From Hydrurus foetidus (lineage: Eukaryota), in contig UYFQ01000794.1 in the NCBI GenBank assembly GCA_900617105.1, forward strand, positions 1-34,548: a stretch of DNA of 34,548 nucleotides. Reading direction: 5' to 3'. The notes below the pieces were generated by a model. The model was not told the origin of the DNA and did not search any database. It was given only the letters and a program-made list of their open reading frames with translations. The position numbers and the translations under genes are program-made. Below are positions 3,743-33,245 of the stretch, piece after piece. The first letter of the stretch is position 1; each line of letters begins with the position of its first letter.

Positions 3743-3976
3743 ACCCCTGTACAGATACAATTTTTTAATTCCTTGTATGCACCTTTTGTATTTTCTATTT
3801 TTTTGTGGTTTGTCCTTATAACGCAGTCGATACAGCGTACAGTTTATGGATTAATTTGTACGCTGTATCGTTGAAAAACCATTCGTATTTGGTCACATTG
3901 TCCAATACATTTTTTAAGTGGAACGATGCATTTGGAGTCTAGTGCGACCATTTAACATAATTTAGAGGCAAAAAAG

Positions 3977-7378: not shown

Positions 7379-7595
7379 TGCTGAGATCAGGAAAGGTTTT
7401 AGGTGGCGGCAATACTGAGATATGTGACTTTAAATGAAGTCAGATTGTGAATTGTATCATCTACTGTGTCGGAGAATTGCATACAGTAGAATTGCTGTTT
7501 TACTGTACAGGAATTTTTTGGACTGGATACGACGGGTTTATGCGTCATAAAGATGAACCAATACACTTTTTTTGTATAAAAAACGTTTGATGTAC

Positions 7596-7613
7596 GCGTC
7601 ATAAGGAATAGCC
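7596..7613 (-). repeat. Right TIR of Harbinger
   Basis: GCGTCATAAGGAATAGCC followed by TTA. Confidence 0.9.
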
Positions 7614-7616
7614 TTA

Positions 7617-9055
7617 GTGGAGTCAGATAGTGCCACCAGTTCCGCCTCTGTGCTCGACATGGTCACGATCTGCTGCTTGGCTGACTTGCTATGCACCGCA
7701 CCACGCTCTCCGACTACCACACAGCTCCCGGTGTGCGACTTCCCATCTGCATGCACCCCATACGCTGCATCGATCAGTGCACTCACTGCGATCTCCTTGC
7801 TCCCAGCTGAGAACACTAACCCCCTGTCCCTTGTCGCGCTCACATACTTGAGCAGTCTGTCCAGCTTCACGAGGTCATCCGATGTGCACCGAGTTACACA
7901 AGTCGCCAAATATGCCACCGCAGTCAGACAGTCCAACCTCGCACGCTTCGCGAGATACAGCATCTTCGCCACCAGGCGATGGAACTTGATACGCTGCTCC
8001 TCGGTGGCCATTTCTGCATCCTCTCTCACTTCGAACAGTCCCTCTGTCGCCGGTGTCCTCGCACCCCCCTTCGCCTCGCTTTCCTTGAGCATGTCCTCCA
8101 CGTAACCGGTCATCGACACGCGTGCAACACCTGTGGTGGTAAGGTCGAACACCATGCCTAGGTAGTGTACTACAGGTCCATCCTTCCTAGTGATATCGCC
8201 GTACCTTCTTTTTAGCCCGCTAGCCACTGACTCAATCATTGCACCATTCTTGCTAGTCACCATCAGGTCATCCACATGTACTGCGATGATGCACTGCACC
8301 CCGTATTCATCATGCTTGTTAAACACACACATGTCGTGCGCATTCAGTATGTACCCTAGTTCCGATAGACTCACCCTCAGATTCTCGTACCATAGCGCGG
8401 CCGACTCCACGCACCCGTACAGCGCTTTATCCAGTCGCACCATCACACACCATTTGTGGTCTGTAAACCGTGAGTATCCCGGTGACAGTCTGATCATGAT
8501 GTTCGTCATGTTCCTGTCTAACCTCATATGCACCGGTAGTCCTGTTGTCATATCTGCGTTCAGGAAAGCACCGCTGATATCAATCACAGTGATGCTTCTC
8601 CCCTCGTGTGCTGCGATACTTAACAGAGTGAACACTGAACACGTCGCAACAGTAGGCGCGGACAGGTCATCATACAGGTCACGATCCTGCTGATCGCCTT
8701 CTGCAACAAGACGTGCCTTCAGCTTCTCGAACTCGCCACTCGCGAGGAACTTCTCCTTAAGAAACATACTCGACCTGATGTTACGCCGCTTCTCGTCCGG
8801 CGATAGCTCTTTCACATCGACCGGTTCCCACACCTTCTTGTCAACCATTTCCCGTAACTCTTTCTCTATCACACTCCCTCCAGCATCACCCCTTGTGCGC
8901 AGCGCTTCGTTCACCGAGATATTGAGCACGTAGTCGCCCCAGTCTGTACCGTCTCCATCGTAGTTGCGCGCCAGCAGCGCTGTCCCTCTCCCGTTCCTGA
9001 AGAAATCTATCACCGCATGCTTATTCAGGCCGTATCGCTGAGGACTCGCATACAC
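7617..9055 (-). pseudogene. pol: Copia-B reverse transcriptase and N-terminal RNase H
   Basis: KLKARLVA.G, IDISGAFLNA, KALYGCVES, VHVDDL, IDAAYG..DGKSHTG, SSTEAELVA. Confidence 0.95.
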
Positions 9056-9130
9056 TGGTTGCGACTTATTCGCACCACTCAGTGCATCCCTGGAATCAGT
9101 GTGGTCGTCCCACCCGCCACCTGCCGCTGT

Positions 9131-11926: not shown

Positions 11927-12137
11927 TGTGGTCCGAGAGGGGATGGAAGAAGAGTAGATTTGGCAAGAAAGGATCTCTTTGAGTTACAACAGGGGGAAGC
12001 TGTCTATGGGATAAACAACTGAAAAGTTGCACTGAAAGGTTAGTGATGTCAGGATTGACATCTCAAACTACCATACATCTACAAGCACGTATGTACCGTC
12101 AGAGGGTCCGGGGTCCGGAGACCCCGGAACCACTACA
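11927..12137 (-). repeat. 3' LTR of G1 (211 bp, TGTAGTGG...GACCACA)
   Basis: Preceded on minus by the purine tract AAGTAGGGGTAG; the copia gag frame resumes directly after; ends CCACA like the other gypsy LTRs. Confidence 0.8.
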
Positions 12138-12418: not shown

Positions 12419-15400
12419 TTAGTCCTCCGCTGTGACCGTCTTGGGGATGAAGCGACTTAGGTTGACCGTCTTGAGGTAGGCGTGCAGGGCGTCAGTGAGC
12501 CGAACTCCAGACTATGGCTCCCACGTGTTGTGTGTGTCGTCGTAGTTGAGCCACTTGATATGGAACCAAAGGGATGAAACGCGCAGTGGGTCGCCTCAGT
12601 GAGCGAGGACCGTCTCGATGAAATACTCCATGTAGTCTCTGCGTGCTATGTCGAGGGGCTCCACCCGGTTGGGATCGAAGATGAACTGCCGCAGCTTGCT
12701 TGCGTGGATCTTCTTCATTTTCTTTGAGACCAGGTGCCTTAGAGTGTACTCCGAGTCCGTGTGGGAAATGACTTCCAGGGGGCCCTGCAACTTGGTGTGC
12801 AGCCGAGTGGGCGGTCCTGTGTCGTAGTGGGCGAGGACAAACGAACCGTCAGGGAACACAGTAATGGGGGGCTGGTTAGCCAGCCTGTCTTCATCTTTCT
12901 TCTTGAGACTCTCCTGGGCAGTCAGGATAATCTGGTTCTGAATCTTGAGGATGTCTGCCATGATCTTGGAGGCAGTCTTGTTTAAAGGGGTGTCCACGTT
13001 GAACGGGAGCAGGATTCCTCTTTTTAGGTTCAACCGGCCTCCGAACAGTATGTGGGCAGGTGCAGCACCGGTGGCTTTGTGCAGTGAGCAGTTGATGATG
13101 CGCTGCACAAAAGGGAGACAGAGCTTATACTGCTCGATGTCAATCGTGTCGAAGGTGAACGCGCGGAGGTGCCTGTTGATCTCCTTGTTTATCCTCTCCA
13201 CAATCGAGTTCTCCTCCTTCGAATACGCCAGCGTCTGGTTGTGACCGGTGCCGACCGCAGCGAGTCGTCCAAGAACGTGTGACAAGAACGTGTGAGTCGT
13301 CCGGGAAGGGTCCGATGAAGTCCATGTTGATGGTGTCGAACGGGTTGTACGTCGAAGAGGCGAAGTGGTGGAGCTGGATGGGAATGCGGACCGCGCTCAT
13401 CTTCTGGCAGCAAGGGCAGTGCCGAATGAAGCTGCGGACATGACTCCGCATGAACGGCCACGAGTGACCTAGCGAGGCGAGCTTGTCCAACGTCCTAGCG
13501 TTGCCTCCGTGTCCAATCATGCCGTTGTGGCATTGCTCTATCCACTCCAAATTTTCGTCAGTCGCTGACGGGCACACCTCGAGGGCCGCCATCAGGCGGA
13601 CTGGTCCATCCATCACCACCGGAGTGTTGTCAACCGCCAGCTCAATGAGGTTGGGGCACAGCCTGGATAATGAGTCCGCCATCTCATTGTCTTTGCCTGG
13701 AACGATCTTCACTTCGAAGTCCAGCTCTTGAAGCGCAATGAACCACCGAGATACCATGGAACTTGGACTTTGCTTCATGAACGTGATGTTCTGGTGATCC
13801 GTGTGTATCGTGAACTTGCGGTCTCTGATCAGCGAGTCAAACTGTTGGCAACAGTGAAAGATGGCGTATGCCTCCTTCTGCATTGTGGACCAGTTGATCT
13901 GGGTCGAGGAGAGAGATTTGCTGACAAAGGCGATGGGTCGCCACACCTGACCCACAACTTGGTAAAGAACTCCACCGATGCCGTAGTCGGACGCATCCGT
14001 GTACAACCGGATAGGCGAGTCGTCGTCCAGGAAGTACATTAGGGGGCATCTTGAAATCGCCAGCTTGATCGCATGGAAAGCCTCCACTCCTGCCGGCGTC
14101 CATATGGGGGCTTCCTTCTTTCTGGCTTTGTGGTCAATCATGTTTTGTAGGGGCCTAACTATGTCGGAGTGATTTGGTACAAATCCCCGAAAGTAGTTCG
14201 CCAGTCCGAGCAGGGAGCGCAGTGCGGTCATAGTCTTGGGTCTTGGAAAATTGAGGACATTCTCTATCTTGGGTGCCGACATGGATAGGCCATCTTTAGA
14301 TACCACTCTCCCTACGTACTCGATACTTGCCATTCTGAAACGGCACTTCTTGGCCTTGAGTAAGAGTCCACGGTCTTTGAAGCGCTGGAGGACCTCCCGC
14401 AGTCTCTCCACGAACTGGTCTTCATTGGAGGCGTAGACGATGCAATCATCCAGGTACATCTCACACGAGACATATAGGAGACCTTGTAATACCTTCGAGA
14501 CCATCTGCTCCTGGAAGTACGAGGGCGCCCGCTTGGGGCCGAAAGGTAGTTGGGTGAAGTGGTATATACCAGCAAAGCAGAGGAACGCGGTGTAGATCCG
14601 ATGATCAGGGTGGATGGGTGCCTGATGGTAACCGCTGGTGAGGTCCATCACTCCAAAAATCTCGGGCTTGCAGTTACCGATGCGCTCGAAGAGTCCCTTG
14701 ATGTTCGGCAAGGGCCAACTGGCGGGCTCGATGCACGCGTTAAGGCCTCTGAAATCCATGCACACCCTAACCTTATCCGGAGTCTGCTGTACCACCACGG
14801 GGTGACTGTAGTATGACGCGGTGGATTTCTCCACGATCCCTTTCTTGATCATCTCGTTTATCGACTTGTGTAGCTCCAGCTCCTTTTTTGGTGTAGTGTG
14901 ACGTAAGGGTCCGCGGTTCTTGCTGGTCTCCCATTCGGACTTCTTTACATCGAACGTGAAGGGGTCTATGTCAGCCGGTTCCGCTGCCAGCTCGTCGCTG
15001 AAGATTCCGGGGAACTCAGAGCATACCGCCTTGCATTTAGCTTGGAGGCTAGCAGTACCCTCGAAACCAATCTGCTTTATATATGCAAATTTGTCTTTGG
15101 GTCCTGGGTCCGTCGCCATGTCGTCCAAGAGGAACGGGCCAAACGCGTCTGTTTTCTCACTATCAATCTCGTCATTAGAGATACTGATACCACTGGGCTT
15201 ATCGCAGACAGTGTCGAGAGCAGGGCCTTCGATAACCAAAGGTGGAGCCGGAGGGGTGTGATTAAGGTCGACAACAGGACGCGGTGTATCATCCTTCCGC
15301 GTGACTAAAGTCGCAATGACGCTGGCTAAAAGTCTGCGACTTCCGGGTTGCCTTTGACTAGTGTCCGGAACTGGAGTCGGATGAGCGCATAACGTAGGAA

Positions 15401-16370
15401 CATTGGTCTCAGGCGGTGGGGCGGCCTGGATCACTTGGGGTGCCCCTACTTGAGCCGGAGCTGTAAGGGGACCTGTCCCCAAAGGGATTGCCTGTGGGCC
15501 ATAGCTTGCTAGCTTTTCCTCCGCCTTCTTTTTGTTCTTTGCTGCTTTCCTCTTCTGAGACGCAGCGCGTTTCTCATACGTTAGTTTATTGTCTGGTGCC
15601 GGCGAAGCTCGCAGGTCTTCTGGAGTTGTCTCAATGAGAATCGTGTCCTTAGTCTTCTTGTCAGCTGCAGTTTTGCGGTCGTAAGCCTTGGACGGGCCTG
15701 ACTTCGCGCCAGCAGGGACAGGGGACGGTTTCAGAAGTAGGCCATAGGTGGGTGGAGTAGACTCGGTCGGGAAACCCAAGGCAGTTGGTGTGAGAATGTT
15801 GAACTTATATTTATTAAGGGAAAGACGTCCTATGATCAGGTCTACGGCGGAGTCAGGGTTGACTCTGGCCTGGAGGTACACCGTGTGGATCTTGTTGTCT
15901 TTATAAAGAAAAGTTACGCCTATGTCGACTACTGCAGTGCTAACAAAACAGTCGCTGTTGAGACCCGAGCACACAGTAATAGGCTCGTCAGACTTATACA
16001 TATGTGCCGAAGCACCTAGGCGAATCATGAAAGCTTCAGAAATAAAATATCCGGCCACGGCTCCGGTATCCAAAAACGCTAGAGCCTTGACCTCTCTGGT
16101 TTGCACCACTGAGGGATCCGAGCACCCTTTAGGCTGTGAAGCGGAAACAGTAACAGAGAGACAGTCTTTAGCAGTTAGAAAATGATCGACATTATCCACG
16201 TACAGTGGCATGACAGGTGGCATCTCGAACGATGAGGGTGGGGCAAGCATCTCTTTCGTCGACACCGGCCTGTTAAGTCGAGGAGCAATGGTGGTAAGAA
16301 CAGTAGTCATCATAGTGTACTTACTTCTCTCTGGGGAGCGGTCACGTGCTACGGAGCGCTCACGTGGCTT
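12419..16370 (-). pseudogene. pol: G1 pol: protease, RT, RNase H, integrase (core deleted near 13280), chromodomain with stops
   Basis: FLDTGA, MDFRGLN, YLDD, TDASDYGIG, H-x5-H...CPCC, MDFIGP, FHIKWLNYDDTHNTWEP. Confidence 0.95.
16134..16324 (-). other. Predicted 191-nt gag/protease intron of G1
   Basis: GTAAGT...TTCTAAC...TTCACAG. Splicing gives AGA ACC TAA. Confidence 0.7.
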
Positions 16371-16586
16371 TGTGGCCTCACTAGGATCTAGGCACTGGAA
16401 GCGGAACGGCTGGGAGCGGGAGCAAGGGAAAGGGGGCTACGGGAGCTATTGCTGTGAAAAAATGTGGTTAGCTTACAGATAAACACAGCAGGTATCATGG
16501 CAATGAATCGGGTGGATCGGATCGTCCTCGATTCGATCCGAACGTACGCCTGTACCTGTACAGCCCGTACGGGTGTGCGGGTCACA
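16371..16586 (-). repeat. 3' LTR of G2 (216 bp, TGTGACCC...AGGCCACA)
   Basis: Homologous to, and the same length as, 30369-30584 (shared TGTGGTTAGCTTACAGATAAACACAG); adjacent PPT at 16587-16602. Confidence 0.88.
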
Positions 16587-16794
16587 GTGCCCCTCTCTCT
16601 CTAAAGGGGTGTACTAATGAACAAAATTCATCATCAAAATACTAACTATGAATAACTAACTAACTAATTGAATAACTATTTCAGACTAAGAACTGAAAGT
16701 TCCTTACTGAATAAACCTCCTTAAAATCCCTGAGGATCCAATTTAGGAGGAATCTTTATGATTTAGTTAATCAATTTTTATTTTATTTTACCGG

Positions 16795-19700
16795 TTAACG
16801 GTAGTTTGCGATGAATTCGCGTGGTATTAAGTGTTTGAGGTTCTTTTTGATTAAGAACTCATGTACTTTTTGCGCTTTACGCATGTGTGTCCACGGTTCC
16901 CATGTATTGTGTTCATGGGTGTAGTTGAGCCATTTCACATGAAATGTGAGTGATTTGTATGCTCTTATGTTTCCTTTCATTTCTAGGATTTCCTCTATGA
17001 AGAATTCCAGATAATCTCTACGAGCAATGTCAGTTGGATCGACATGCGTAGGATCAAAGTGAAACGGTTTTAGTTGGGTCATGTGGTACAACTTTTCTTT
17101 GTGTGTTACCAGATCGAGTAATGTATACTCTGCGAAGTTATGGCTGACAACTCGCATTGGGCCGCGCCACAGTGTGTGCATGCGCGTTTCTGGTGATGTT
17201 CTTTGTTGGACAAGTACAAATGTGTCGACTCCGAACTGTGTGACGTTGGGAGGTTGTTGTGCATTGTGCAAGTCGTCGGATTCTTTGAGTAGACGTGCGG
17301 TGATTTCGATGAGTTCATCTTGCAACGTTAACATTTTATCAGTTGACCGTGTGAGTGAGTCGAAATCTAAATCAATTTCATCTCTCGGAAGGAGGATGTT
17401 TGCGTCGAGGTCGATCGCGTTGCCGTAGATGAGTTGTGCTGGAGACACTTTCATCCGGTCATTTACGGTTGAATTTAGTATTCTTTGTACAAACGGTAAT
17501 ATTTCCGCGTAGTTTTCCGTAGTTGCCCGTTCGTATGCGTACGCGGTTATATGGCGATTGATTTCTTTGTTGATTCGCTCGACGATAGCGTTTTCTTCTG
17601 AACAGTATGGTAATATTTTGTTGTGTGTTGTTCCAACAATTTTCACAAACTCATCTATGATGTGGCTTGCGAAGTGGGGTCCATTATCTGATCGAAGTAT
17701 ACACGGTGAGCCGTATCGCCCCACGTGTTCTACAAGTGCTGTGCACGCTGATTTGGCTGTTGCATCAGGTGTTGCGTAGAGTTCGACAAACCTTGAGAAG
17801 GTGTCGATCATAACAAGGATATATCCTTTATCGGGAAATGGACCAATGAAGTCTATGTTGAGGCATTCCATTGGTTTGTAGGTTGAGGTTGTGTACCGGT
17901 ATGCGTTGATGGGATATTTCATCGCCGACATCTTTTGGCAACAAGGACAATTTTTAATGAATGTTTTTACTGCGTCACGCATTCCCAGCCATATGTTATT
18001 TGTTTTTTTAAATTACGCAGTGTGCGTTGTACACCACCATGTCCGACTATCGTGTTGTGGCACGTTGCAATTAGGTTATATTGCTCGGTCGTCATTGGTT
18101 TGTGTGTCAGAATTGCTGCTATTATTCCTGTTTTAGGTGGCATTCTGTTTTTACATAGGCGAGACATTGCGTCAGCAATTTCATTTTGTTTTCCCGGGAT
18201 GTACCCTATCGTATATTCTAGTTCCTGCAGGGCCATACGCCATCTGCCGACCATCTCGTTTTTATCCTTTTCTAGGAACGTAAGATTTTTGTGGTCTGTT
18301 AGGATTGTGAATTTACGGTCTCGTAGCAGTGCGTCAAGATAAGTACAGCAATAGTATAGCGCGAAGGCTTCTTTTTGTATTACTGACCATTTCAGTTGAG
18401 TCTTGGTAAGAGACTTGCTTACGAGAGCGACGAGTTGTTTTTCTCCGTCGACTTCTTGATACAAATAGCCGCCGATCCCGTAATCTGACGCATCGGTCAT
18501 GAGGGTAATGGGCGCTGTATCGTGTATGAAATATAATAAAGGACTCTTTGCAATTAGATCTTTTATCTTTTGAAAAGAATTTGCGGCGTCATCTGTCCAG
18601 ATTAGCATTGATTGCTTTTTCGCGGCGTGATCTATAATTTTGTGCAGTGGTGCTACCACGTTGGAGTGATTTGGTACATGGTCCCGAAAATAATTGGTGA
18701 GTCCGAGGAACGATCTTAGTTCAGTCGTCTTTCGTGGCATAGGAAAGTCGGTCACACCTCTTATCTTTTTGGAACTCATAGTTATACCTTCTTTAGATAT
18801 TTGTCTACCGACATATTCAACTATTCGCACATTTAGCTTTAGCTTTGCGGCTTTTAGTGAAATGTTTTTGTTTTCTAGGCGTTGAAAAAGGATTTCTAAT
18901 CGCTCGCAGAATTGATCAAATCCATTACCATAAACGATGATGTCGTCGAGGTATACTTCACAGATTTGGTATATTAGTCCTAAAAGGACTATTGAGGCCA
19001 TCATTTCTTGGAAATATGAGGGGGCTCTTTTGGGTCCGAAAGGTAGTCGGGTAAAGTGGTAGATGCCCATAAATGTTATGAAAGCTGTATACACACGTGT
19101 ACTTAGAGTTAACGGTGCTTGGTGATATCCTGCTGTGAGGTCTATTACACCGAATGTGTCTGCTTTTTGTGATCCTAATCTTGCTAACATTTGTTTAATA
19201 TTAGGGATTGGCCAGCTTGCTGATTCCGTTGCGTCGTTGAGGTGACGATAGTCAATACAGAATCGGTATGAACCGTCTGGCTTTGCCGCGAGTGTTACTT
19301 GCGAATAGTATGATGCCTCTGATTTAACTATTATACCCTGTTCAAGCATAGTTTCAACTTGTTTTCGGATTTCGACTTGTTTTCGTGTAGACGTTGGTCG
19401 TGGTGCTACGCGGTTTTTGAAAACTTTCCACTCTGGATCCCGTACGGGTAGTCCAAAGGGGGAATTCGCGCGGGCTCTGGTCCGAGTTTGTTGTTGAATA
19501 GCTTTATGTGTTTGACACAAATTGCTCTAATTTTTGCTTGTTGTTCAGGGGTACCATCGATTTGTATGAGATCGATGAGGTACATTTTGTCCTCTGTTGG
19601 ATTGTCTTGGAAAGGAGCGAAGGTATCCTTCGACTTGTAGTCAATCTCTTCGGGTCCGAAGGGTTGAACCTCTGGGAGTTCTTCACGCTCCCGGAGTAGA

Positions 19701-22519
19701 GCAGCAACTAAACCACGTGTTTGGGCTGGTGCCTTGGATGAGGGAGTAGGAGTAGCTAATTCCGGACTCCTGTCGGTTGTTACACCTAAATCATTTTGTC
19801 GGGGAGGTGACAACAAAACTGCTGCCTCGACCGTAGAGTGCAAAATGAACTCATCGGAATCTAGCCTAGCCGCTGCCGCAGCTAAGCTAGTGGGACACCC
19901 ACATGAAGGAGTGCATGTCTTGCTTGTACAAGCACCTCGAGCCACCAGGTCGTCTTGCCATCGACTGTTTGTGTCTGAGGGTTTTATCCCCTCTCGGCTA
20001 GTTGTAACCGGAGGTAAGGTTGGATCTGCAATACTTGTAACCGTGTCCAACTCTGCTTCTAGCATGAGTGGAACGTCCACGTGGTTTAATACCATGTTTG
20101 TGGATTGATTCAGTTTTTGCATTGAGTGAATTTTTTCATTTTCGATATTTCCGGAGATTGGAAGAATTCCGGAATAATTTTAACCAAATTTAGTTTTCTT
20201 ATTGTCTCCAATCCTAAGATTAAGTCGACTTTAGAATCTTCTGCAATTCGCACCGGAAGAGAAAAAGTGTATTTTAAATTGTTTTTGTTAAATGATACAA
20301 CAATATCAAGCACAGCAGTGGATTCAATACATTGATTGTTTAGACCCGAACACATCCATATGGGAGAGTCGGTGGTGCGGAGTTGGGGTTCACCACGTAG
20401 GCCCCGAAGGACTCTACGATTGATTACGTCCCCAACCTGACATCCGGTGTCGATTTGGGCTAAGGCGGCCATGCCGTTATTTTGGTCCATAGCTGGATGA
20501 GGATTTGGGTGGGGACCGGTCTCGATCGCGGCGATCTTTGTCTTTGTCCTTTTCCGCTTGGCGCGAGTCGTCTTTGCGGTTGGAATCGCGGTCGCGACTG
20601 TCAACGCGGTCGCCAAAGCGGTAGCCGGGGATGGGGTCTGAGGAAGATGTATTTTTACTTGTAAGTAATCATTAATCTCGTTAGGTATGATTGTTGATAA
20701 AATCATTTGCATGTTTGGCAAAATACGATTTTCCGAGATATTTTCCGCATACGGAATTTTGGACTCACGTTTTCCTTTGTACCCGCGGTCTTTGATGTCG
20801 CGAGTATCGTGATTTTCGTTGCGATCGGTGTCGCGATTGTCTTTGCGGTCGTTGTCGCGACTGTCTTTGCGGTCGTTGTCGCGGTTGGACCGGTCGTTGT
20901 TACGGTTGTTGTTGTTGTGGTTCGCTTTCTTGTTGTTGTTCTTGTTATTGTTGTTGTTGGTTTTGCGAGGATCTTCTTTTGCGGCGGGACCCATGTCATT
21001 TTCGACGTCGTCTGTTGGGTAGACATATGTTGCCGCGCCAGGATTGTTGGTGGTTCTGGTCATTTCGCCATTGAGGAGGACTTTTGGAACGAATTGGTCG
21101 TGGCCAATGCGCCTGAACTCTGTGGCCATCGATGATTGACTCCACGTGCAGCACGTGTTGTTGCAATGAGGGTTCATAAAATTGCGACAATCGTAGCGGT
21201 TGTGGCCGGCGCGACCGCAGGTGTGGCAAGTATCGACTGTTTTGCTCAACCCTGGGTAGGCGTCGGATTCGCGTTTGGGTATCGTGCGGTATGAGGCGGA
21301 GAGCTGCGTGACGTTGCTGGACGACAATGTGTCAGGAGTGATTTTGGTCTCGAAGTCGTGACGAAGACCACCCATGTTGGACGCGTTGATAACTCTTTGT
21401 CGAGCTTCACTGAGGCAGAGATTCATTCGGCACAACATGTCCGGGATGGAATCCTTCTTGTTGTTTCTTGTTTTGTCCTTTGTAGTTTTCATGAAATTTT
21501 CAGTGAACTTATTATCAAGAGGGAGCTTTTTGTAGATGATCTTACAGATCTCATGTTGGCGGTCTGCAGGGATATTGTCGTAACTTCCGTAGTATCCGAA
21601 GAGGATGTCTCGGAGTCGTGCAATTGCCGCCAACTCTGCGTTTGGGTTTTGCCATTTGATCTTCATTTGCCAGTTTTCAGGGCAAGGTCCAAGTCATAGG
21701 TAGACTCTGTGGCGCGATCACTGAAGAAGAGTTTCTTGAGATCGGTTGCCATGTCGCGAATGGACAGGAGTTTGTCGTCGATGATAGGCCAGGTTTGACA
21801 CATTTTGATTGTGTATCCGAGAGTCTTTCGATTTGGAAGCAGACTGTCTCGGATCACATGGAAAGCTTCGTCTTCAATTAGATCTTCCCAAGGCACATTA
21901 AACTGAGGGTGGTGAGCCTGTGTATAGAACTTTCGGGCTGTGCCGTCCATGTCCTTTAGTAATGTCTCACGTGTTACATAGAACACTTCCTTCATGTTGA
22001 TGAGGGAGGTTGTGAGTGCTTGGGGTGTTCTTTGTTGTTCGAAGGTTGTGTCTGCCTCTTCGGTTTTGCGCTTGCGGTTTGAAGTGGCAGCCGCTTTCGT
22101 GGAAGCTGTCGCTGGCTTCTTTGCAGTTGCTACCGTTGCTTTCGACGTTTTGGATCTGGTGGCACGCGTGGGTTTGTCTTCAGATTGAACGGCAGAGAGT
22201 GGTTTTGCCTCCCTTGTTTTGGCAAGGGCTTTGATTGGCATAGCCTTTTACTTTTTCGGTTTTGGTGACGGTGGGATTGACGCTTCCGACTCACTTTGAT
22301 CTTCCTCGTCCGATTTGGACTTGGTATCGTCGGGGTTGTTGTCTTCCTCTTCGTCCTCGTCATTGGTTTGTTCGTCTTCCGCCTCTTCCGAGGCGTTGTC
22401 AGACACCGAGACGTTATCATCGTCGGAGAGAATTTCCTTCGGAGATGTTTTGGTACCGATTTTGTCGTCGCCCTCTTCCGTTTGCTGACGATGAGGAGTG
22501 TAATGCTGAAGCTCCCGAC
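16795..22519 (-). pseudogene. gag-pol: G2 gag-pol with frameshifts (~21665, ~20115, ~19450, ~17975) and a stop (~22248); integrase-chromodomain part 16795-17982 is open
   Basis: CHTCGRAGHNRYDC, QIDTG, IDYRHLN, YLDD, TDASDYGIG, IDFIGP/RSDNG/IVERIN, FHVKWLNYTHEHNTWEP. Confidence 0.95.
20638..20768 (-). other. Predicted 131-nt gag/protease intron of G2
   Basis: GTGAGT...CCTAAC...CTTCCTCAG. Splicing opens a 53-codon RD-rich tail ending at TAA 20477. Confidence 0.8.
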
Positions 22520-22727
22520 TGTGATAGTACCGGGTCCAGGGTCCCGATCCTACCGGGTACCGACTCTACCGGATCCTACCGGGTACTACTACTGTACACT
22601 ACAGTTAGGCTGTCGTATCGTCGTAGCCATCTACAGCGTCCACGTAGAAGTTAAGTAGCTTCTAGCCTAGATACCTGTAACTAAGCCTACTTCCTCTCGC
22701 CCCCCTTTCTCCATTTGCCCGACCACA
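22520..22727 (+). repeat. 5' LTR of G3 (208 bp, TGTGATAG...GACCACA)
   Basis: The G2 gag frame runs up to 22519; TG...CA termini; size and 3' end resemble the G1 LTR. Confidence 0.8.
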
Positions 22728-23279
22728 ATAGCGCTATTATCCTCGGGAAAATTTCTGCTGCCTCTAATTCCCCTCTACTCGTCCCAACTTTAGTTACGAC
22801 TTCCAACACCTGAGTATTATTACTCACAACATCTTCGGAGTCGAAATTCTTGCTGAGCTACGCTCCAAGAACTTAGTTTTAAGTTAGCGAAAGTTGGGTT
22901 TAGCCTCTTTCCTCTTGGAACCCATTATTGGTGTCTTCAAAGTTCGTAGTTGGTTGAATTCGCGAAAGCCTTCACCACTCGACAATTTGAACATTGGATT
23001 CATTGCTAACGACACCAAATTAGTCTAAGGACTTCTTTTGGCTGGTGGGAATTACTTCCTTCATCCTTTACGGACACCAAAAATTTTCTCCACTCAAAAA
23101 TTGGCTTTCACGCCTAAGAGATTTTATCAACAAGAGTTGGTTGAAATCGACTTATTCGCTGTTACTTGCGTAAAGTATCCTCAAAGCTAACAAGGCGAAG
23201 CTCTGGCAAAAAATTTGACACAGAGATCCCTTCGTTGCTTAGACTTTGATAGATTTATAACGTCTTAAAGTCATATACC

Positions 23280-23970
23280 ATGGCAGATGACGACGAAGCA
23301 TCTTACCCTCGTTACGACGATGAAGGTAAACTCCTCGAACATCCTCCAGTTGATGAAACTGAGGAAGAGGAAGTGCTAGAAGAGGACGGGGGTATTTTAA
23401 ATGCCACCCAAACCTCACAGTCTTCAGTGGCGCAAACTATCCTGTTTCCACAGACTATGCAGATGCAGCGAGAGATATTCGTCCTAAAAGGCGATTACAT
23501 CACTCCGCAAGACGCTGAGAGCTTCTTCGAACAAGCCCAACGGCTGCCTCGCTTACGCATTAATGAATGCATGCAACGTCAGGCAATTGACTTGCTACAT
23601 GTCAAAATTATGACAGACACCGCTCCTTCGTCTCTGACACTAGAACAGAAGTTCGAATGGCAGAATATACTTGACATTGATTATGTTGCGAAACTAATCA
23701 TGCAGTATTTTGGCTCGAATAAACAACGAGACCATGCCGATCATACCCTCGCGGAACTTTTCGCTAAGGTACCATTTCATTACTCACTAAATTCCGATGA
23801 GGAAGAGTTGAGCACGTACATGGCGTACAAAGAATTGGTAACCAATTATGAGCGCACCCGCCGTATCACTCACAACCAACAGACGGAGTTGGTAACGATT
23901 TTGGAGAGACGACTTGCTCGTGGCAGTCGTATCCAATCAGACTACTTTGAGTCTAAGAGGGTTGACAATG
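23280..23970 (+). pseudogene. gag: G3 gag, N-terminal part
   Basis: ORF downstream of the LTR and leader; acidic N-terminus then a helical region like the G2/G4 gags; ends at the junction with the G4 integrase (end approximate). Confidence 0.7.
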
Positions 23971-26900
23971 TGCGGTGAGTAACCAGTACCAACGAGTCGA
24001 TTTCGAACGTTGTGTAGTCGGTTGAACCGCCTGCTTTGCGTTTCTCGCCCGCTTCTTTGAGTAGTTCAGCAGTGATTCTGATGAGTTCATCTTGCATCTG
24101 CATAATTTTCTCAGTAGAATGGGTGACATGAGCCATGTCTAAGTTTATCTCATCTCGAGGGAGAAGGATGTTGGCATCAAGGTCAATAGCATTGCCGTAT
24201 ATAAGCTTTGCTGCTGTTGACTGTGTCCGTACGTTGAATGTCGTATTTATAATTCGTTGTACGAATGGTAAAATTTCTCGGTAGTTTTCCGTAGTTGCAC
24301 GGTCAAATGTAAATGCCGTGATGTGTCGGTTAATTTCCTTATTCATACGCTCTACTATCGAGTTTTCTTGCGAAGAGTATGGTAGAATAAGGTTGTGTGT
24401 TGTACCGGCAACTTTTACAAATTCCTCGAGGATTTTGTTTACGAAATGGGGACCGTTATCGGATCGCAGGAATTTGGGAGCTCCGTAGCGACCGATGTGT
24501 TCTATTAGGCCTGTTACGGCCGATTTTGCAGTATTATCAGTTGTGGCTGATAGTTCGACAAACCTTGTGAAGGTGTCTACCATAACAAGGATGTATCCTT
24601 TATCCGGGAATGGACCAATAAAGTCTATGTTTATGCATTCCATAGGTGCATATGTTGATGTTGTGAAACGATGGGTGACGGGTTTTTGTTTGTCAGCAGA
24701 CATCTTTTGGCAACACGGGCATTGTTTAATGTATGCTCTTATATCGTGTCTCATGCCTTCCCATACTTTCCCTATTTTTTTTAGGTTTCGCAAAGTGCGA
24801 TTGAATCCTCCGTGCCCAACGGTAGAGTTGTGGGCACGCATTAAGTATGCATATATTTCCGCTGCAATCGGTTTGCAAGTAAGGATTGCTGTTATGATGT
24901 GTTTCGGCATCTTGTTTTTACATAGGCGTGACATTGCGTCAGCGACTTCATTATTTTTCCCAGGGATATACCCTATCGTAAAATCTAATTCCTGTAGCGC
25001 ACAGCGCCATCTTCCGACCATCTCATTTTTATCCTTGTGCAGGAAAGTAAGATTTTTGTGATCGGTCAGGATAGTAAACTTACGATCTCGTAGCAGGGCG
25101 TCGAGATAGTCACAGCAAAAGTAAAGGGCGTAAGCCTCTTTTTGTATTACGGACCATTTCAACTGGGTCTTGGTAAGAGATTTGCTTACGAGAGCGACGA
25201 GTTGTTTGACTCCGTCGACTTCTTGATATAAATAACCACCTATACCGTAATCAGACGCATCTGTCATGAGGGTAATAGGTGCTACATCGTCGATGAAATA
25301 TAATAAGGGACTCTTGGAGATAAGATCTTTGACTAACGTAAACGCGTCGGCCGCTTCGTCTGTCCAGACAAGCAATGTTTGCTTTTGGCGGCGTGATCTA
25401 TCATTTTGTGTAGCGGTGCTACCACATTTGAGTGATTTGGTACATGATCCCTAAAGTAATTGGTGAGACCGAGGAACGAACGTAGTTCAGTTGTCTTTCT
25501 TGGCATCGGAAAGTCAGTCACACCCGTTATCTTTTTGGAGCTCATTGATATACCTTCCTTAGATATTTGTCTACCAACATATTCAACTACTTTGACGTTA
25601 AGTCTTAGCTTTGCAGCTTTGAGTGAAATGTTTTATCTTCTAGACGTTGAAACAATGTTTCTAAACGTTCACAGAATTGGATGTGTCCATCAGCATATAT
25701 GATGATGTCGTCTAAATAGACTTCACAGATGCTGTATATAAGGCCAAGTAGTACTATTGACGCCATCATCTGTTGAAAGTATGATGGGGCCATCTTGGGA
25801 CCGAATGGTAGTCGTGTGAATTGGTATATACCCATAAATGTTATAAATGCGGTAAATACTTGTGCCGCCAGTGTTATTGGGGCTTGGTGGTATCCGGCCG
25901 TAAGGTCGATTACGCCGAATACGTTTGGCCGTTGCGCGCCAAGTCTGTATAACATTTGTTTTATATTTGGGATCGGCCAACTTGCAGATTCGGTTGCCTC
26001 ATTGAGGTTCCTGTAATCTATGCAGAATCGGAGTGAACCGTCTGGTTTATTTGCAAGTATTACTTGGGAGTAATATGAGGCATCGGATGGTTTTATTATT
26101 CCCTTTTTGAGCATTGCTACGATTTGTTTTCTGATTTCCTCTTGTCGCATCGTTGAAGCGACTCTGGGAGCACCCCGATTACGGAAGTGTTTCCATTGAG
26201 GTATGTTTACCTTTTTGAAATCGAAAGGGGGAATTCGAGCGGGTTCTGGACCCAGCTCGTTTTTGAAAAGCGATTTGTGTTTTATGCAAATCGCTTTAAT
26301 TTCGGCAATCTCAGTTGGTGTACCATCGATATGTATTAAATCAATTAAGTACATCGAATCGTTGTTTGGATTGTCTTGAAAAGGAGCGAAGGTATCCTTC
26401 GACTTGTAGTCGATCCCTTCCTTATCACGGAAAGACCGAACCTCAGGGAGGTCTTCGTCTTCCTCCCTAAGTAGAGCTGCCGCAATACCACGCGTTTCGG
26501 TTGGTGTTATGGATGAGGGTGTAAGAGTAGCTACTCTCTTACGCCTTTTGGTTTTTACACCAGATCCATTCTGACGCGGAAGTGGCAACACTAGTGTTGT
26601 CAAATTGGTGGTGCGTAGTATGGACTCATCGGAAGCAAGCTGAGCAACTGCCGTCGCTGAGCTTGTAGAACACCCGCATGAAGAGTTGCAAGTCTTGTGT
26701 GTACAAGCACCTCGAGCTACCAGGTTATCCTGCCGGGGAAAGTCTGTAGTCGAGGGATTTATGCCCTCCATGACAGAAATGCCAGGAGGTAGTGGGGACC
26801 CTGGGTCAGCTATTTTACTTTCCTCTTGGACAGTGTCCTTTTCCGTTAGTAACGGTAAAGGAATTTCCGTTTGGATTGTGTCTGCTGACGCTGATTCGGC

Positions 26901-29867
26901 TGATATTACCTCGGGGGGTAGTTCGGTGTCTATGAGTACCGTGTGTGGTACTTGTGCATCGTCCTCAGCCGAGAACGACACCCTTTGTTTTTTTAGCGGT
27001 GAAGCTGGTATCGCACTAGGCGTTATTTTATCGAGGTTCTGGAAGAACTCTGGTATTATTTTTACCAAATTTAAATTTTTTATAGTCTGTAATCCTAAGA
27101 TTAGGTCGACTTTTGACTCCGGAGCTACTCGGACAGGAAGACTAAAAGAGTGTTTTAAATCGTCTTTATTAAATGATACAACAATATCAAGCACATTTGT
27201 AGATTCTACACATTGATTATTTAAGCCACTACACATCCACATGGGTGAGTCGGACTTCCTCAAGTGGGTTTTGCCACGGAGGCCCCGAAGGACTCTACCG
27301 TTGATGACGTCCCCGACTTGACATCCAGTGTCGATTTGGGCTAGGGCTTCCATGCCTCTAGTTTGGTACGTATTGGTTGGAGGAGGAGGAAGAAGAGGAA
27401 GATTTATGTCTGTCCCCCTCCTTGCTCTCCGCCTGGTGCGAGTTGTCCCTGCGATCGTCAGGTCGGTCGCGACTTGGTTTGAAATTTGCGATCGGATCTG
27501 TGGTAAAGATATGTGAACTTGTAAGAAATCATCTATGTTTTCAGTTAGTACAGCTGATAGAAGTTGTTTCATTGATGGTAATACTCGAGCGTACTCGATT
27601 ATGTCCGTACTTGGGTTAGCAAGTTGTGACTTACTTTTTCCCTTGTAGTTGGAGCTCAACTTGTTCGTGTTGGAACGATCGTTGTCCCTATCCGGTTGAG
27701 TCTGGTTGCTCTTGTACTTGTTGTACTTGGTGTTGTTGTTGGTGGCCAGCTTTTGTTTCTTGGTCGGACGGTCGTCTTGGGCTCTCCCTGGAGGAGAGAA
27801 GTCGTTCTCAACATCGTCAGATGGGTACACGTAGGTAGCTGCCCCGGGGTTGTTGGTGTCCCGGGTAAGTTCCCCGTTGATGTACACATTTGGTACGAAG
27901 AATTCGTGACCAATCCGTTTGAAGTCCTTTGCCTCCTCAGACTGCGACCAAGTGCGATGGCTACGGTTGCAGTGAGGGTTCATGTGGTTTTGGCATTCGT
28001 AACGGTTGTGTCCCTTTTTGCCACAGGTGTGACAGAAGTTGGTCGCCCGGCTGAGGCCGGACGACTCAGGGTCCACCTGACGTTTTGGGATTGCCTTGTA
28101 GGCGTTAGCCGAGTGGCTGTCACGGTGAGGTGCGACCTCAACGTCGTCTTGGTCGGTTGGCGTGAGCTTTGACTCGAAGACGAAGTCGAGACCTCCCATG
28201 TCCTCCGCGTCTTTGATCATCTGGCGTGCTTCGCCCAGCATGACGACAAGACGCGTGAGCATTTTGAAGATGGTATCTTTCCCGGTCTTTTTCGTCTTAC
28301 GTTTTGTCTTTGCCATGAAATTGTCTGTAAACTTGTTGTTCTTTGGCAGCTTCTTGTAGAAGGCCTTACAGATGTCATTTTGCATGTCGGCATCGATATT
28401 GTCGTATGACGTCCAGAATCCGAGTAGGATGTCACGGAACTCAGAGAGAGCTCTGTCTTCAACAGAAGGATCTTTCCAGCTGATGCGGAATTTGCAATTC
28501 TTCAACTTCATTTCGAAGTCGAAATGGGAAGACGTACGTTTGTTTTTGTAAAAGATCTTTTTAAGATCATTTGCAATGTTCTTTAACGTTAACGTTTTGC
28601 CTTCGACCGTTGGCCAGGCGAGACAAGTCTTGGTGTTGTAACCTGTCTCGCTTTTGCATCGAAGCAACTGGTCGCGGATCGTTTGGATGGCATCCATTTC
28701 GATTAGCATTTCCCAACTGGTTAACATACCGGGGCGGTATGCTTGTTCGTAAAACGCTCTTGCTGCTTTATCAGCGTCGTCGAGAAGTTTTTCTCGAGTG
28801 AGGTAGTACGCCTCCTTCATGTTGATGATGGAGGTTTGCAAACCCGCTTTGCGTTGTGGAGGGGAATCCTCTTCCGAGTTTTCCGCCTTTTGCGCGCGGT
28901 GTGTTTTACCGGATTTGGCATCGGCTTTGGTTTTCACCTTTTTGTCCTTTGGGGCGGGTTTGGGACCCGCCTTTGGGGACTTTTTCTTGGCGAGGGGTTT
29001 TATCTTAAGGGACTTCTTGTCCTTGGGCTTAGACTTTTCGGGTTCGACCTCCTCGTCGTCTTCGACTTCGACTTCAGCTTTCGCCTCATCGTCGTCGCTG
29101 TTGTCGTTCCCGTCGTCGTCCCCGTCACCCTCTCCGTCGTCCCCGTCGCCACTACTTGCGTCGGACTCGTCGGAGGAGCTGTCGGGGTTGCCACCATCGC
29201 CTCCCGTGTCGTTAACGTCGTCGACGTTACTGTCGTTCTCGTCGTCGGACTCGTCGGGGGGTTTGTCGTCGTCGTTGTTGTTGGCATTGTCGTCACCGTC
29301 GGCGTCAGCCTCCGGATCTGACTCGGCGTCGGCCTCGGCCTTGCCGGTGTCGGATGCCTTTTTTGTTGTGACTTTGGCGTCGACTGATGGTTCGAACAGA
29401 TCGTCCTCTGCACCGATTTGTTGCAGTCGCGGAGGGAGTATCGAGGTTTCTCCCCCTCTTTTTAGGTACCCGCGGGTATCGAGAGGAGAGTCTGTCTCGC
29501 CCTCGGCTTCCTCGGGTGCCAACCCGAGGAGCTCGTCGTTTGAGGGCTCTAAAGCGTCGGCAGCAGCTTGTGCAGCAGCTATTTGTGCTTGCTCTAGTCT
29601 GTGAGCTTCTTGCATTTCTTTTGTTGCTGCCATGACGCTTTGGAAGAAAATTTCCTGGTCCTCAAGACGAGTTGGGGTAGCCGAAACATGTATTGCTTCT
29701 TTGGCCAGAGCCTGTATCGATTTCTCGATGTTTTGCTTTACAAGGGCCTGCTCCGCTTTGTGCTTCTCCTTCTCAGTGAGAGGAGCACTGCGCGAAGCGC
29801 TTGGAGCTGAAGAAGTAGAGGCGGCTGCGTTAGCAGCCGCTTTCTTCTTTATTTGGGCCCTTGTCAT
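23970..29867 (-). pseudogene. gag-pol: G4 gag-pol: gag, PR and RT in one 1420-aa frame, frameshifts near 25630 and 25378, 3'-truncated integrase
   Basis: CHTCGKKGHNRYEC, QIDTG, IDYRNLN, YLDD, TDASDYGIG, RSDNG, IVERMN. Confidence 0.95.
27498..27634 (-). other. Predicted 137-nt gag/protease intron of G4
   Basis: GTAAGT...TACTAAC...TTTACCACAG. Splicing opens a 46-codon tail ending at TAG 27358. Confidence 0.82.
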
Positions 29868-30368
29868 CGGACTTTTGTCTTGAGCTTGAAACGTCTTGAT
29901 CTTGGGGTCTTGGACAGCGACGGAACTCGGACGCGGCGCTCTATGGAGCTGAGGATGTGATCCCGCAGCTATGATGTCGTGGGATCGTAGGATCCTTTAA
30001 ACGATGGAGCTGTTGGTGGTTTACTTTCGCGCGATTTCGTCGGAAATCGCTCGAAAAGTTGCCTGGCGGTTTCTCTAACGATGGGACTTGCTTTTGCTCG
30101 GCTCAGAGCTACTTGCTTCGTTAGGCTTCGAGTTTTGAAGCCGTCACGATTTTGTCGCGAAAATATCGACGACTCGAACTTTTTAACGAAAGCGTTTCAG
30201 AGGCTGTCGATTAGACGTAGCCTTTGTAGTGTCTTTCGACGTTGTTTTCACTTGTTGCCAAGTTACTAGCTTGTTTGCACGCCGTTTTACGGGTCGTGGC
30301 GATGTTTTTGGGAAGCGTTTTGGAACTGGTCTCTAAAAAGAGCACCAAGTTGGTCCAAATACTAGTAT

Positions 30369-30584
30369 TGTGGCCTAACTATGGGCTCGGCGGTGGGACT
30401 GCTGGGACAGGGCGCGGGGGCAAGAGGAAGGCAGCTGTTGTGCTGGTGCTGTTGGCTAAAGATGTGGTTAGCTTACAGATAAACACAGAGATAGGCAAGT
30501 CATGAATCGGATGGCTCGGATCGTCCCCGATCCGAACCAAACGTACGCCGGTACCCGTACAGCTGTACAGCTGTGTGGGTCACA
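30369..30584 (-). repeat. 5' LTR of G4 (216 bp, TGTGACCC...AGGCCACA)
   Basis: Diverged homologue of the G2 3' LTR with the same termini and length. Confidence 0.88.
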
Positions 30585-31059
30585 GGAGTCCTCCATGATG
30601 CGCATCATCTCTGTCGTCTCCGCGGCGCGCGAGGCTATCCGAATGAGCAGGAGCTACGGCAGTCCTGATCTCATCTACTCGTTTCCGAGTACCGCAGTAC
30701 CCCCTCTACGTGCATCACAGAAGAGGGAGAGTACAATCGCGATTCGCGATGTGGATCCGCCTAGCGGCAAAAGCACCTTAGCGGTTCGTACCTCGGCTCC
30801 TCGAGTCTGCCGCTCGTGTGGCAATCCTGCACACATGCTTCCCGCATGCCCTGTGTTATATTACACTGACACAAACAACGATCACTCCACTCAATGGTCT
30901 GAATCAGCTGTGGGGCAGGCATGGTTAGCCAACGGTGAATCCATGTGGCAGGAAAGGTTAATCCTTCCTGGTTACGAAAACGGTCAGCGGCACCATCCCG
31001 CGGGTTCCCCTCCTTTCTTGATGTTCACTAACAAGAAATCAAAGAATAACCATGGGTCG

Positions 31060-31215
31060 GGTAACCAAAACAACCCCAATCAAGGCAACCAAGGAAATAA
31101 CCGCGGTAACCAAGGTTATGGTAACCAGGGTAACCAAGGGAACCAAGGTAACAACCGCGGTAACCGAAATCAAGGTTATGGTAACCAGAGTGCTGGTAGA
31201 GGCTACCAAGGGGGA
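31060..31215 (+). repeat. Coding tandem repeats (GGTAACCAA units) giving an N/Q/G/Y-rich low-complexity Gag tail
   Basis: NQGNQGNNRGNQGYGNQGNQGNQGNNRG. Confidence 0.85.
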
Positions 31216-31291
31216 AATCCCCGTGGGGGTAAATACAACCCACCCCAGGGGGGGCCCACCTCGTCTTCCGATTCAGCGGGACAAAATCAAG

Positions 31292-31455
31292 GTATAAATG
31301 ATTATGATGTTGATTCATCTGACATTTTAAACCTCCTGGATGTTGTGTCGTTCATTTCACATGTCGATACACTTCCAACGCTTATTCAAGATGAATATTT
31401 GCATGACCCGTCTACCCTTCCTTCTAATTACTTAAACGTTACTGTTTCGGTACAG
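31292..31455 (+). other. Predicted 164-nt gag/protease intron of G3
   Basis: AG|GTATAA...TTCTAAT...GGTACAG. Splicing gives CAA GGA TAA. The donor is weaker than in the other three. Confidence 0.65.
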
Positions 31456-32759
31456 GATAAGGATACGGATAACCAGACTAGCGTACGACGCATTGTGGGC
31501 AAGGCCGTGTTGGACACCGCCAATTATTCTGAGGATTTTATTTCTTTCATTATGATTCCTCTGTTATGAGGCTCCTAAAGCCATAACTGTTTGCTCTGGT
31601 CTTGATGGCCATTGCTATATAAATAACGAAATTATTAATTTGACTCTCCAGTTTCATTCTTATGATGGCGAATGTCACAAAATCCCTTTAACCTTGCGAG
31701 TTAATCGGAATACAGATATTGAACTTTTGTTAAGTCGCAACACTGTAAATAAATATGATTTTATGTCATTAACACCTTTTGCTTTTGGTATCTCTCCTGA
31801 GCTCAGTGCGGAGAACAAAAGGAAAAGGGATATTCGTTGGCGCGAATTTGAAGAAAGGGAAGCGATAACAAAGCTTGACCCGCTTCACTGGAGCAAATAC
31901 ACCAGGCGTATGATATCGGAGGGAGTTCTACCCGAAGAACCAGAGGTAGAGTCGATTACCCCAACATATGACTTGTTGAAGGGAATCACACAGACTAAAC
32001 TCGCTCTGAAAAGAGACGCATACGGTTTTTGCCTTAAGCCAACCTCAAAACCAAAGAAGGCCATTTTGCACGCACCTCTAATTGAGAAAGTCGTGGGGTC
32101 AGGTTGTCATGCAACGTTCACGTGTAGCGTTACCCAGGTTGGTTCCGAGGGAGTCATGACCCAAAGTCCATGTGGTGATGTGGGTTCAGCGACTGAGTGT
32201 CACGACTAGACTCGCAAAACGTACGGGTGATACCCCGCACCTAGGTGGTGACTCGATTCCCACCCTCACACATACCTCTGGGGACTCTGTTACATCAGAC
32301 TATGACGTGGAAGCCGTATGGCCAAGCGGTGTCGCACTCTCCGTTGACGAGATTGACAATGACAAGACTGACACTTTCGCACCTTTCTTGCGTGACAAGA
32401 CGTGCCGAAATGTACCGCCCAATGGGCCGGATGATTTTTTGTCACAAATCCATTTTGAGGGGGATGAAAGCCTTCAGAAGGATTTGCGTACTCTCTGTTC
32501 AGAATTCGCTGATATTTTCAGTGATAAGCCAGCCCCGCAAGCTGCACATCTCAAACCATTTGAGATCAATTTGCCTAAGCAAAAATGGGAGGTTCCATCG
32601 AACCGCACACCAGTGCGCCCCCAATCCTCTAAAAAGGAACATTATCTCCGCACTTCAATTGAAGAGATGCTGGAGGATGGTGTGATCGAGAGGTCGAACG
32701 CTGCATACTACAGTCATCCTGTAATGGTAAATAAGACAGCCGATACATATCGAACCTGC

Positions 32760-33245
32760 TGTCAGTCCAGCATATTCATGCATGATCTGTTAGCATAGTT
32801 TCATCTGTAGATTAGCATTCACATGTCACAAGTAGTGTAGCGCTTCCTCACCCAAAACACCGCCATACACTGTTGTGTACATACGCTCATCGTTCTTCTA
32901 GCGATATCCCCCTTCGGGGCCATCACCAAGCATCCGGATTTCCACCAGGTATCCGGTTTCCACCAAGCATCCGATTTCATGGGCAGCGAGGGTTCCGCCC
33001 ATTGCTCAATCGCCAACTTGAATATTCGCTGAATATATTTCCACTTCGGCGATCACCATTTCATGCACAATGGATGCTTTGCTTTGCTTCTTTGATGGTT
33101 GTCTTCTCTGATATCATCGCCAGTTGTTTTACTACTTGATCGTTGTAAGTAAACACGTCTTCCGAGACCACTTCCATCAGTCAGTCTTTCCTTTGCGCTT
33201 CCGCAGCCAACAGGTAGCTCGCTTCACTCCACAGTCTGACTCACA
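32760..33245 (+). repeat. 5' LTR of Copia-C (486 bp, TGTCAG...CTCACA) with a ~18-bp triple repeat near 32920-32980
   Basis: TG...CA termini between the broken RT and the PBS; ATCCGG.TTTCCACCA units. Confidence 0.8.

Follow-up and report, generated by a model that had tools for sequence, protein, structure and literature searches.

A candidate coding intron, spliced or retained, at the Gag-protease junction of a clade of chromodomain Ty3/gypsy elements

Introduction

The DNA analysed here (the window: 34,548 nucleotides of Hydrurus foetidus, assembly GCA_900617105.1, contig UYFQ01000794.1, positions 1 to 34,548 of the forward strand) carries four decayed chromodomain Ty3/gypsy elements, termed G1 to G4, that are nested in one another: G2 lies in G1, G3 in G2 and G4 in G3. 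Each of them has, at the junction of Gag and protease (PR), a short coding interval with splice-like borders, and a sequence-only reading of the window had proposed that this interval is spliced out for Gag and retained for Gag-Pol. Comparative tests on 30 members of the clade support this proposal, and the design extends far beyond the window.

How single-frame gypsy elements obtain more Gag than Pol is largely open, and published spliced Gag is tied to copia elements (here and below, statements on published work refer to those parts of the sources that were accessible). If a coding intron is indeed kept throughout a gypsy clade, the same solution arose in both superfamilies, and the tail overprinted by the spliced frame, described below, would illustrate plainly how a new exon can grow within the loop of an enzyme. 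Annotating such elements as a single polyprotein would then be an error.

Results

The nest of elements in the window

The features of the four elements are as follows (LTR, long terminal repeat; RT, reverse transcriptase; IN, integrase; CTRAY, branch-point-like motif).

12422-16133, minus strand: G1 pol after the acceptor (PR core, RT, RNase H, IN, chromodomain); one frame break near 13290
16129-16131, minus strand: stop of the G1 spliced frame
16134-16324, minus strand: G1 candidate retained intron, 191 nt; CTRAY at 16174-16178
16325-16370, minus strand: last 15 codons of G1 gag, matching the gag end of P0041; the remainder is displaced by G2
16371-16586, minus strand: G2 3′ LTR, lying in G1 gag and with a polypurine tract before it
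16795-20637, minus strand: G2 pol after the acceptor (PR, RT, RNase H, IN, chromodomain); three frame breaks
20477-20637, minus strand: G2 predicted dual-coding stretch, a 53-codon Gag tail over the 62-residue spacer before the catalytic Asp (20451)
20638-20768, minus strand: G2 candidate retained intron, 131 nt; CTRAY at 20680-20684
20769-22519, minus strand: G2 gag with CCHC knuckle; one frame break near 21675, truncated by the G3 LTR at the 5′ end
22520-22727, plus strand: G3 5′ LTR, within G2 gag
22727-22738, plus strand: G3 12-nt perfect palindrome at the primer-site position, including the last LTR base
23280-23972, plus strand: G3 gag, first part (split by G4), corresponding to P0041 residues 69-252
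23969-30584, minus strand: G4, whole element
23969-27497, minus strand: G4 pol after the acceptor (PR, RT, RNase H, IN); two frame breaks, 3′ end missing
27358-27497, minus strand: G4 predicted dual-coding stretch, a 46-codon Gag tail over the 55-residue spacer before the catalytic Asp (27332); spacer modelled as a disordered loop
27498-27634, minus strand: G4 candidate retained intron, 137 nt; CTRAY at 27544-27548; in the model it codes for a helix and the first protease strand
27635-29867, minus strand: G4 gag, 744 codons, with CCHC knuckle, in frame with PR
30358-30369, minus strand: G4 12-nt perfect palindrome at the primer-site position
30369-30584, minus strand: G4 5′ LTR, 75% like the G2 3′ LTR
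30586-31291, plus strand: G3 gag, second part
31292-31455, plus strand: G3 candidate retained intron, 164 nt; CTRAY at 31424-31428
31456-32760, plus strand: G3 PR and start of RT, broken and truncated
31458-31460, plus strand: stop of the G3 spliced frame

All four copies are broken: pol is interrupted by frame breaks, the 3′ ends of G3 and G4 are missing, and in none of the four are both LTRs kept. The two halves of G3 gag match consecutive parts of the full-length relative P0041, and their joint (23957 to 30593) was found within one contig of sequencing run X3. The four intervals had been ascribed to four divergent elements; G2 and G4, however, are relatives (75-79% DNA identity over PR and pol), so that the window holds four intervals from three lineages. 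The nest occupies 12137-32760, with every insertion within gag of the preceding element and a copia element adjoining at 7538-12062, a layout that fits chromodomain targeting of element-rich chromatin. Four frame breaks (18002, 21673, 25382 and 25630) sit in single-base runs whose length differs in many other copies in sequencing runs X2 and X3, and some of them may be assembly errors rather than decay.

The order PR-RT-RNase H-IN is that of Ty3/gypsy and not of Ty1/copia elements. Pfam matches were obtained for RT, RNase H and integrase, and the chromodomain PF00385, which at the integrase C-terminus characterizes chromoviruses, was found in G2 and in four of four full-length relatives; the trees contained no reference chromovirus sequences, and the chromovirus label is given here by this domain, not by a position among named clades. 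Among solved structures, the RT of Ty3 Gag-Pol comes nearest (7q5b, 4ol8; E 1e-69, the next being 1e-30). LTRs with TG..CA ends are present (one each in G2, G3 and G4), as is a polypurine tract in G1 and G2. A tRNA primer-binding site, typical but not universal in Ty3/gypsy, is absent; at its position G3, G4 and many relatives carry a 12-nt palindrome.

Relatives and clade sampled

A search by RT alignment provided 108 loci, 28 of them in genome contigs and 80 in metagenome contigs, the latter being the best of 399 confirmed there. The protease motif was located in 57 of them and in G1, and G2, G3 and G4 were added by hand. The 40 rows falling in the clade were reduced to 30 representatives by dropping L094 (a false protease hit), L024 (cut short) and eight near-duplicates. 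RT identity among the representatives is 49-94%, with a median of 61% (28 measured). G1, G2 and G4 belong to one clade (SH-aLRT 99 in a quick IQ-TREE run; 1.0 in FastTree), to which G3 and L104, which have too little RT, were assigned by protease likeness. The representatives are kin, and all P values given below are hence optimistic, that is, too small.

Eleven of the 30 are open for at least 430 codons above and at least 1190 codons below the catalytic Asp, and the intact relatives P0041, P0053 and P0062 consist of one frame of 1860-2058 amino acids with RT, RNase H, IN and, at the end, the chromodomain. DNA of these elements is present in sequencing runs from freshwater, sediment and biofilm; among the 24 runs listed, none is given as RNA. 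Protease-based scans of viral and metagenome contigs and an RT scan of viral contigs gave no matches.

The claim that gag and protease share a single frame in each element applies directly to G4, whose gag is in frame with PR; in G1 only 15 gag codons are left above the donor because the 3′ LTR of G2 occupies 16371 onward, and for G1 the single frame is shown by the relatives P0011 and P0041.

Splice signals at the Gag-protease junction

The proposed donors at 16324, 20768 and 27634 (minus strand) and 31292 (plus strand), and the CAG acceptors at 16134, 20638, 27498 and 31455, are correctly placed. The intervals measure 191, 131, 137 and 164 nt, each donor follows the first base of a codon, each interval contains a branch-point-like motif, and the pol frame is open throughout. 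It is also true that all four lengths are 3n+2, but this does not count as independent evidence, since a phase-1 donor and a whole-codon acceptor force it. With the intervals removed in code, G1 and G3 run into a stop one codon past the junction; G2 reads on for 53 codons and G4 for 46. A blind scan, which takes the best donor 60-200 nt above an acceptor anchored on protein, recovers exactly these four intervals.

The sequence-only reading had suggested testing the conservation of GT, branch motif, CAG and non-3n length on family copies, and across the 30 representatives these signals are largely kept. The acceptor was anchored on the protein alignment only, as the first Gln after protease strand 1. 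This Gln is present in 29 of the 30 elements and its codon is CAG in 26 of the 29; in the frames concerned, 0.37 of all Gln codons are CAG (P 2e-9 if independent), and at five other conserved Gln sites 39 of 107 (36%) are. In L093 the CAG stands one codon later. The close kin L015, L018 and L033 have AAG (Lys) at the acceptor spot, where the proteins P0011 and P0041 also have Lys, and a switch to an AAG acceptor is possible.

Donors were compared with 400 synonymous-codon shuffles per element that keep the protein. The best donor 60-200 nt above the acceptor is in phase 1 in 29 of the 30 elements, and its score is above the shuffle mean in 29 of 30 (4.15 vs 0.58 bits; Wilcoxon 7e-9). Strong phase-2 donors are impossible in an open frame. 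No donor excess appeared in five of six control windows. CTRAY is found 12-60 nt above the acceptor in 23 elements, 12.3 being expected, and the pyrimidine share exceeds that of the shuffles in 25. The donor-to-acceptor intervals span 77-197 nt (median 108) and are poorer in GC than their flanks (0.36 vs 0.52; lower in 29 of 29). What lifts the case above chance is the clade, not the donors of the window taken one by one.

The donor reaches further than the clade: among 16 more distant elements of an outer clade it scores above shuffle in 15 and is in phase 1 in 11, and no common acceptor is clearly fixed in these 16. Their candidate acceptors vary in place, some lying inside the active-site motif (18 nt after the catalytic Asp in L038, L051 and L068; 10 nt before it in L067 and L074), and the resulting lengths are 3n+1 or 3n+2. 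One outgroup element, L102, has one strong phase-1 donor, a single case.

A predicted Gag tail over the protease loop

Between the acceptor and the catalytic Asp the 30 representatives have 12-62 residues. Read in the spliced frame, this stretch would encode a basic, Gly-rich tail (27% Gly, 27% Lys+Arg, 6% acidic). In the pol frame these bases give 21% acidic residues, often as runs of Glu that arise when Arg-Gly repeats are read with a shift. Tails are longer where the spacer is longer (rho 0.85; -0.05 for the third frame), and in all 30 elements the spliced frame stops before the catalytic Asp, by 4-24 codons. Over 17 pairs, substitutions in the overlap are distributed 48/86/60 among the pol codon positions, with the peak at position 2, which is the wobble position of the spliced frame; in the PR core of the same pairs they are 83/46/146, with the peak at position 3 (difference p 2e-10). 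Identity in the overlap is 212/313 for the tail vs 196/325 for the pol frame. The composition, the match of tail and spacer lengths and the wobble shift argue that the spliced frame downstream of the acceptor is translated and selected, the protease loop being its by-product. The tail would thus be a selected, overprinted part of Gag that explains the insertion in the protease, a point that had escaped the sequence-only reading.

An AlphaFold2 model of the G4 region (mean pLDDT, the model's own confidence score, 80) has the fold of a retropepsin and matches Ddi1 and retroviral proteases. It places a helix and a strand (37-43) in the intron-coded part and leaves residues 47-94 unstructured; from the retropepsin fold, the intron-coded strand is probably needed by the enzyme.

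The tail could also be real and be reached by another route, ribosomes on unspliced RNA shifting by -1 close to the conserved Gln, with the splice-like signals incidental. The tail frame is indeed the -1 frame of pol, selection on the tail is silent on how it is reached, and -1 frameshifting is usual in Tf1/sushi-group chromoviruses (10.1101/2022.12.06.519325). However, in-frame slippery heptamers occur between 45 nt above and 12 nt below the acceptor in only five of the 30 elements and at unlike positions (a count made without a null), most ribosomes would have to shift, and the CAG bias, the donor excess, CTRAY and the low GC would be left unaccounted for. We regard frameshifting as very unlikely.

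Evidence against splicing, and chance

Several points weigh against a spliced intron. All the support for splicing is comparative, and splicing itself is what we infer from it. The donor matrix consisted of generic frequencies and not of frequencies from host introns. Taken singly, only eight of the 30 donors reach p 0.05; in the window only G1 does so (G2 0.27, G3 0.20, G4 0.15). The best donor of L015 is in phase 2, CTRAY is missing in seven of the 30, and the sixth control window has a mild donor excess (0.80 vs 0.10, p 0.008). When the search window is widened, other phase-1 donors win in G3, L012, L018, L021 and L031, and a phase-0 donor in L004; G3 has further phase-1 donors upstream, and its exact donor is less sure. 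Admitting AAG brings the acceptor count to 30 of 30, by a rule set after the three exceptions had been seen. As for the tail, a stop ahead of the catalytic Asp is found in the third frame too, in 25 of 30, and G1 and G3, which have no tail, are left uncovered by the argument from selection.

The signals could also be due to chance and protein constraint, Gag ends rich in Lys, Gly and Ser yielding donor-like words and the conserved Gln an acceptor-like word. This view gains from the three window donors that are not significant singly, and from phase 1 being the commonest best phase in several control windows too. It is nevertheless largely refuted: shuffles that preserve the protein score far lower, other conserved Gln sites are CAG in little more than a third of cases, and neither the wobble shift nor the tail-to-spacer match has a protein-level cause in pol. 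We consider chance extremely improbable.

Proposed mechanism

Taken together, the CAG bias, the donor excess confined to its window, the excess of branch motifs and pyrimidines, the low GC and the selection on the spliced frame point to a coding intron that is either retained or spliced. The most probable arrangement, which we favour strongly, is that this short intron is spliced from part of the RNA to give Gag alone, unspliced RNA giving Gag-Pol and the genome. The host spliceosome would remove the interval around the first protease strand from some of the RNA; the shift of frame would then yield a complete Gag that includes the CCHC knuckle and in most members also carries a basic tail, which may bind nucleic acid. 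Splicing would in this way set the Gag to Pol ratio. Presumably only unspliced RNA is copied, because otherwise the intron would be lost at each round, and the persistence of the interval together with the lack of intron-less copies in the loci indicates that the unspliced RNA is the copied genome. As the new stop lies downstream of the junction, junction-dependent decay would be avoided.

In the fetched loci, none of 94 blast matches of junction probes crosses a junction, so no intron-less DNA copy was found there. Among the joints listed (15 of 51) in contigs of sequencing runs X2, X3, X18 and X20, none equals a predicted junction; coverage in X2 and X3 is even and DNA-like, X18 and X20, which might be RNA, have only 50 and 19 records, and the result speaks neither for nor against splicing. 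Inspection by eye of P0001-P0032, of 41 of 69 further cluster members and of 58 of 148 protease matches with enough upstream sequence revealed no spliced Gag among these database proteins, which are mostly genomic gene calls. Regarding early polyadenylation of the spliced RNA, AWTAAA was observed 36 times in 28 elements, 25.5 being expected.

Spliced RNA might instead be a minor or damping product, or the donor might join mostly another acceptor, Gag excess being reached by some other route such as Pol decay. In Tf1, Gag excess comes about via Pol decay. The outer clade retains the donor without a clear common acceptor, and short isoforms of sunflower copia elements without the capsid domain have been proposed as possible inhibitors (PMC7730604). 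Against this stands the nature of the predicted spliced product, an entire Gag with CCHC knuckle and a tail under purifying selection, as expected of a product on which the element depends. We think this reading very unlikely.

The palindrome at the primer-site position

[quoted passage not shown] It starts with the last base of the 5′ LTR, as judged from L031 and from the LTR pair of G2 and G4. The flanking motif occurs at 158 sites in the loci; 34 of these are perfect palindromes, where a few would be expected, and the middle six bases vary between families yet stay self-complementary. Palindromes in relatives (locus and position) include the following.

L002:259, L012:343, L019:509, L021:2168, L031:55, L038:67, L039:78, L042:885, L052:2733, L068:162, L069:295, and others

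A role in RNA-dimer priming or in dimer initiation is possible. No complement longer than 7 nt exists in the 75 bases after the palindrome. Self-priming of the Tf1 type was considered and rejected, since upstream of the palindrome no complement exceeds 8 nt. The Conserved Hairpin Site of fungal GalEa copia elements (PMC5445492) is similar in that a palindrome including the last LTR base replaces the tRNA primer site; it differs in having 10 nt, followed by a second complementary site, where here there are 12 nt. Skipper elements do without a tRNA site in another way (PMC5006619).

A wider proposal, which we advance tentatively and would not yet count as probable, is that a deep gypsy lineage, formed by the clade and its wider relatives, independently evolved spliceosomal control of Gag and draws two Gags from one frame: the spliced Gag would gain an Arg/Gly-rich RNA-binding tail, overprinted on the protease loop and lacking in Gag-Pol, and this tail-bearing Gag could chaperone tRNA-free RNA-dimer priming at the palindrome.

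Other observations

In nine close RT relatives (L017, L025, L026, L027, L056, L059, L080, L077 and L078) no protease motif was found upstream of RT and the gag-like frames are separate; they may be protease-less non-autonomous families or decayed copies. A distant relative, L045, has near 3065 an in-frame stop 23 codons above the catalytic Asp, which suggests readthrough or an intron holding a stop. L081-L105 are contigs with eukaryotic retrotransposons inside genomes titled as bacterial metagenome-assembled genomes, and probably reflect binning contamination. The other frames flanking the nest belong to the copia element, to a piece of Harbinger-type transposase and to orphans. Window positions 3100-3440 and 3956-4681 contain ACGT-rich short repeats and palindromes beside the Harbinger-type transposase fragment (PF04827).

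Discussion

Spliced Gag-only RNA has been described for copia elements, namely BARE1 (PMC3735527), EVD and other Arabidopsis copia elements (PMC5580714), and likewise triticale and sunflower elements (PMC7765848, PMC7730604, PMC9784723); PMC7197481 also links spliced Gag to copia. In the full-text literature we found no case of spliced Gag in Ty3/gypsy; subscription papers fall outside this scope, and an earlier report is possible. In their accessible parts, PMC5580714 states that there is no conserved splicing of such kind in Arabidopsis gypsy elements, the sole gypsy Gag RNA of PMC7765848 is intron-free, a review of December 2025 (PMC12786077) names EVD, BARE1 and Ogre, PMC13547354 contains no gypsy case, and PMC2911113 has nothing that bears on the question.

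Two gypsy elements, Ogre and CRR, do have partly spliced gag-pol RNA (PMC6317226, PMC3735527), but neither gets Gag alone via a coding intron. Ogre follows the opposite logic, splicing out a non-coding intron that lies between PR and RT to obtain Pol, whereas the interval described here codes and lies upstream of the catalytic Asp; in CRR splicing removes RT. The Tf1/sushi-group and plant chromoviruses (10.1101/2022.12.06.519325, PMC6317226) share with our elements the order PR-RT-RNase H-IN-chromodomain and a CCHC Gag; for them a -1 frameshift, an in-frame stop or a plain single frame is described in the text available, and spliced Gag is not among these solutions.

Some traits that mark BARE1 and EVD are found here as well: a single gag-pol frame and, at the Gag/PR junction, donor and acceptor sites that are conserved and spaced so as to shift the frame. 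In the shGAG of EVD and other Arabidopsis Ty1/copia elements (PMC5580714), conserved donor and acceptor positions at the protease likewise lead by frameshift to a Gag-only mRNA; there, however, the entire protease is lost with the intron, whose removal is coupled to early polyadenylation. BARE1 of barley (PMC3735527) is closer, with its single gag-pol frame and its 104-nt GT-AG intron at the Gag end and PR start, 3n+2 in length, poorer in GC than its flanks and spliced in half of the poly(A) RNA, the shift of frame stopping Gag in a near full-length spliced RNA. BARE1 differs in being a copia element, in that splicing was demonstrated by RT-PCR, and in that its reading stops three residues past Gag. 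Our elements are gypsy elements with a chromodomain, splicing is predicted from sequence and throughout a clade, and in most members Gag would be extended by a tail under selection, up to 55 codons long, that overprints the protease loop. The design works like that of BARE1 without being that of a copia element, and what is new with respect to BARE1 is the overprinted tail and the conservation across the clade.

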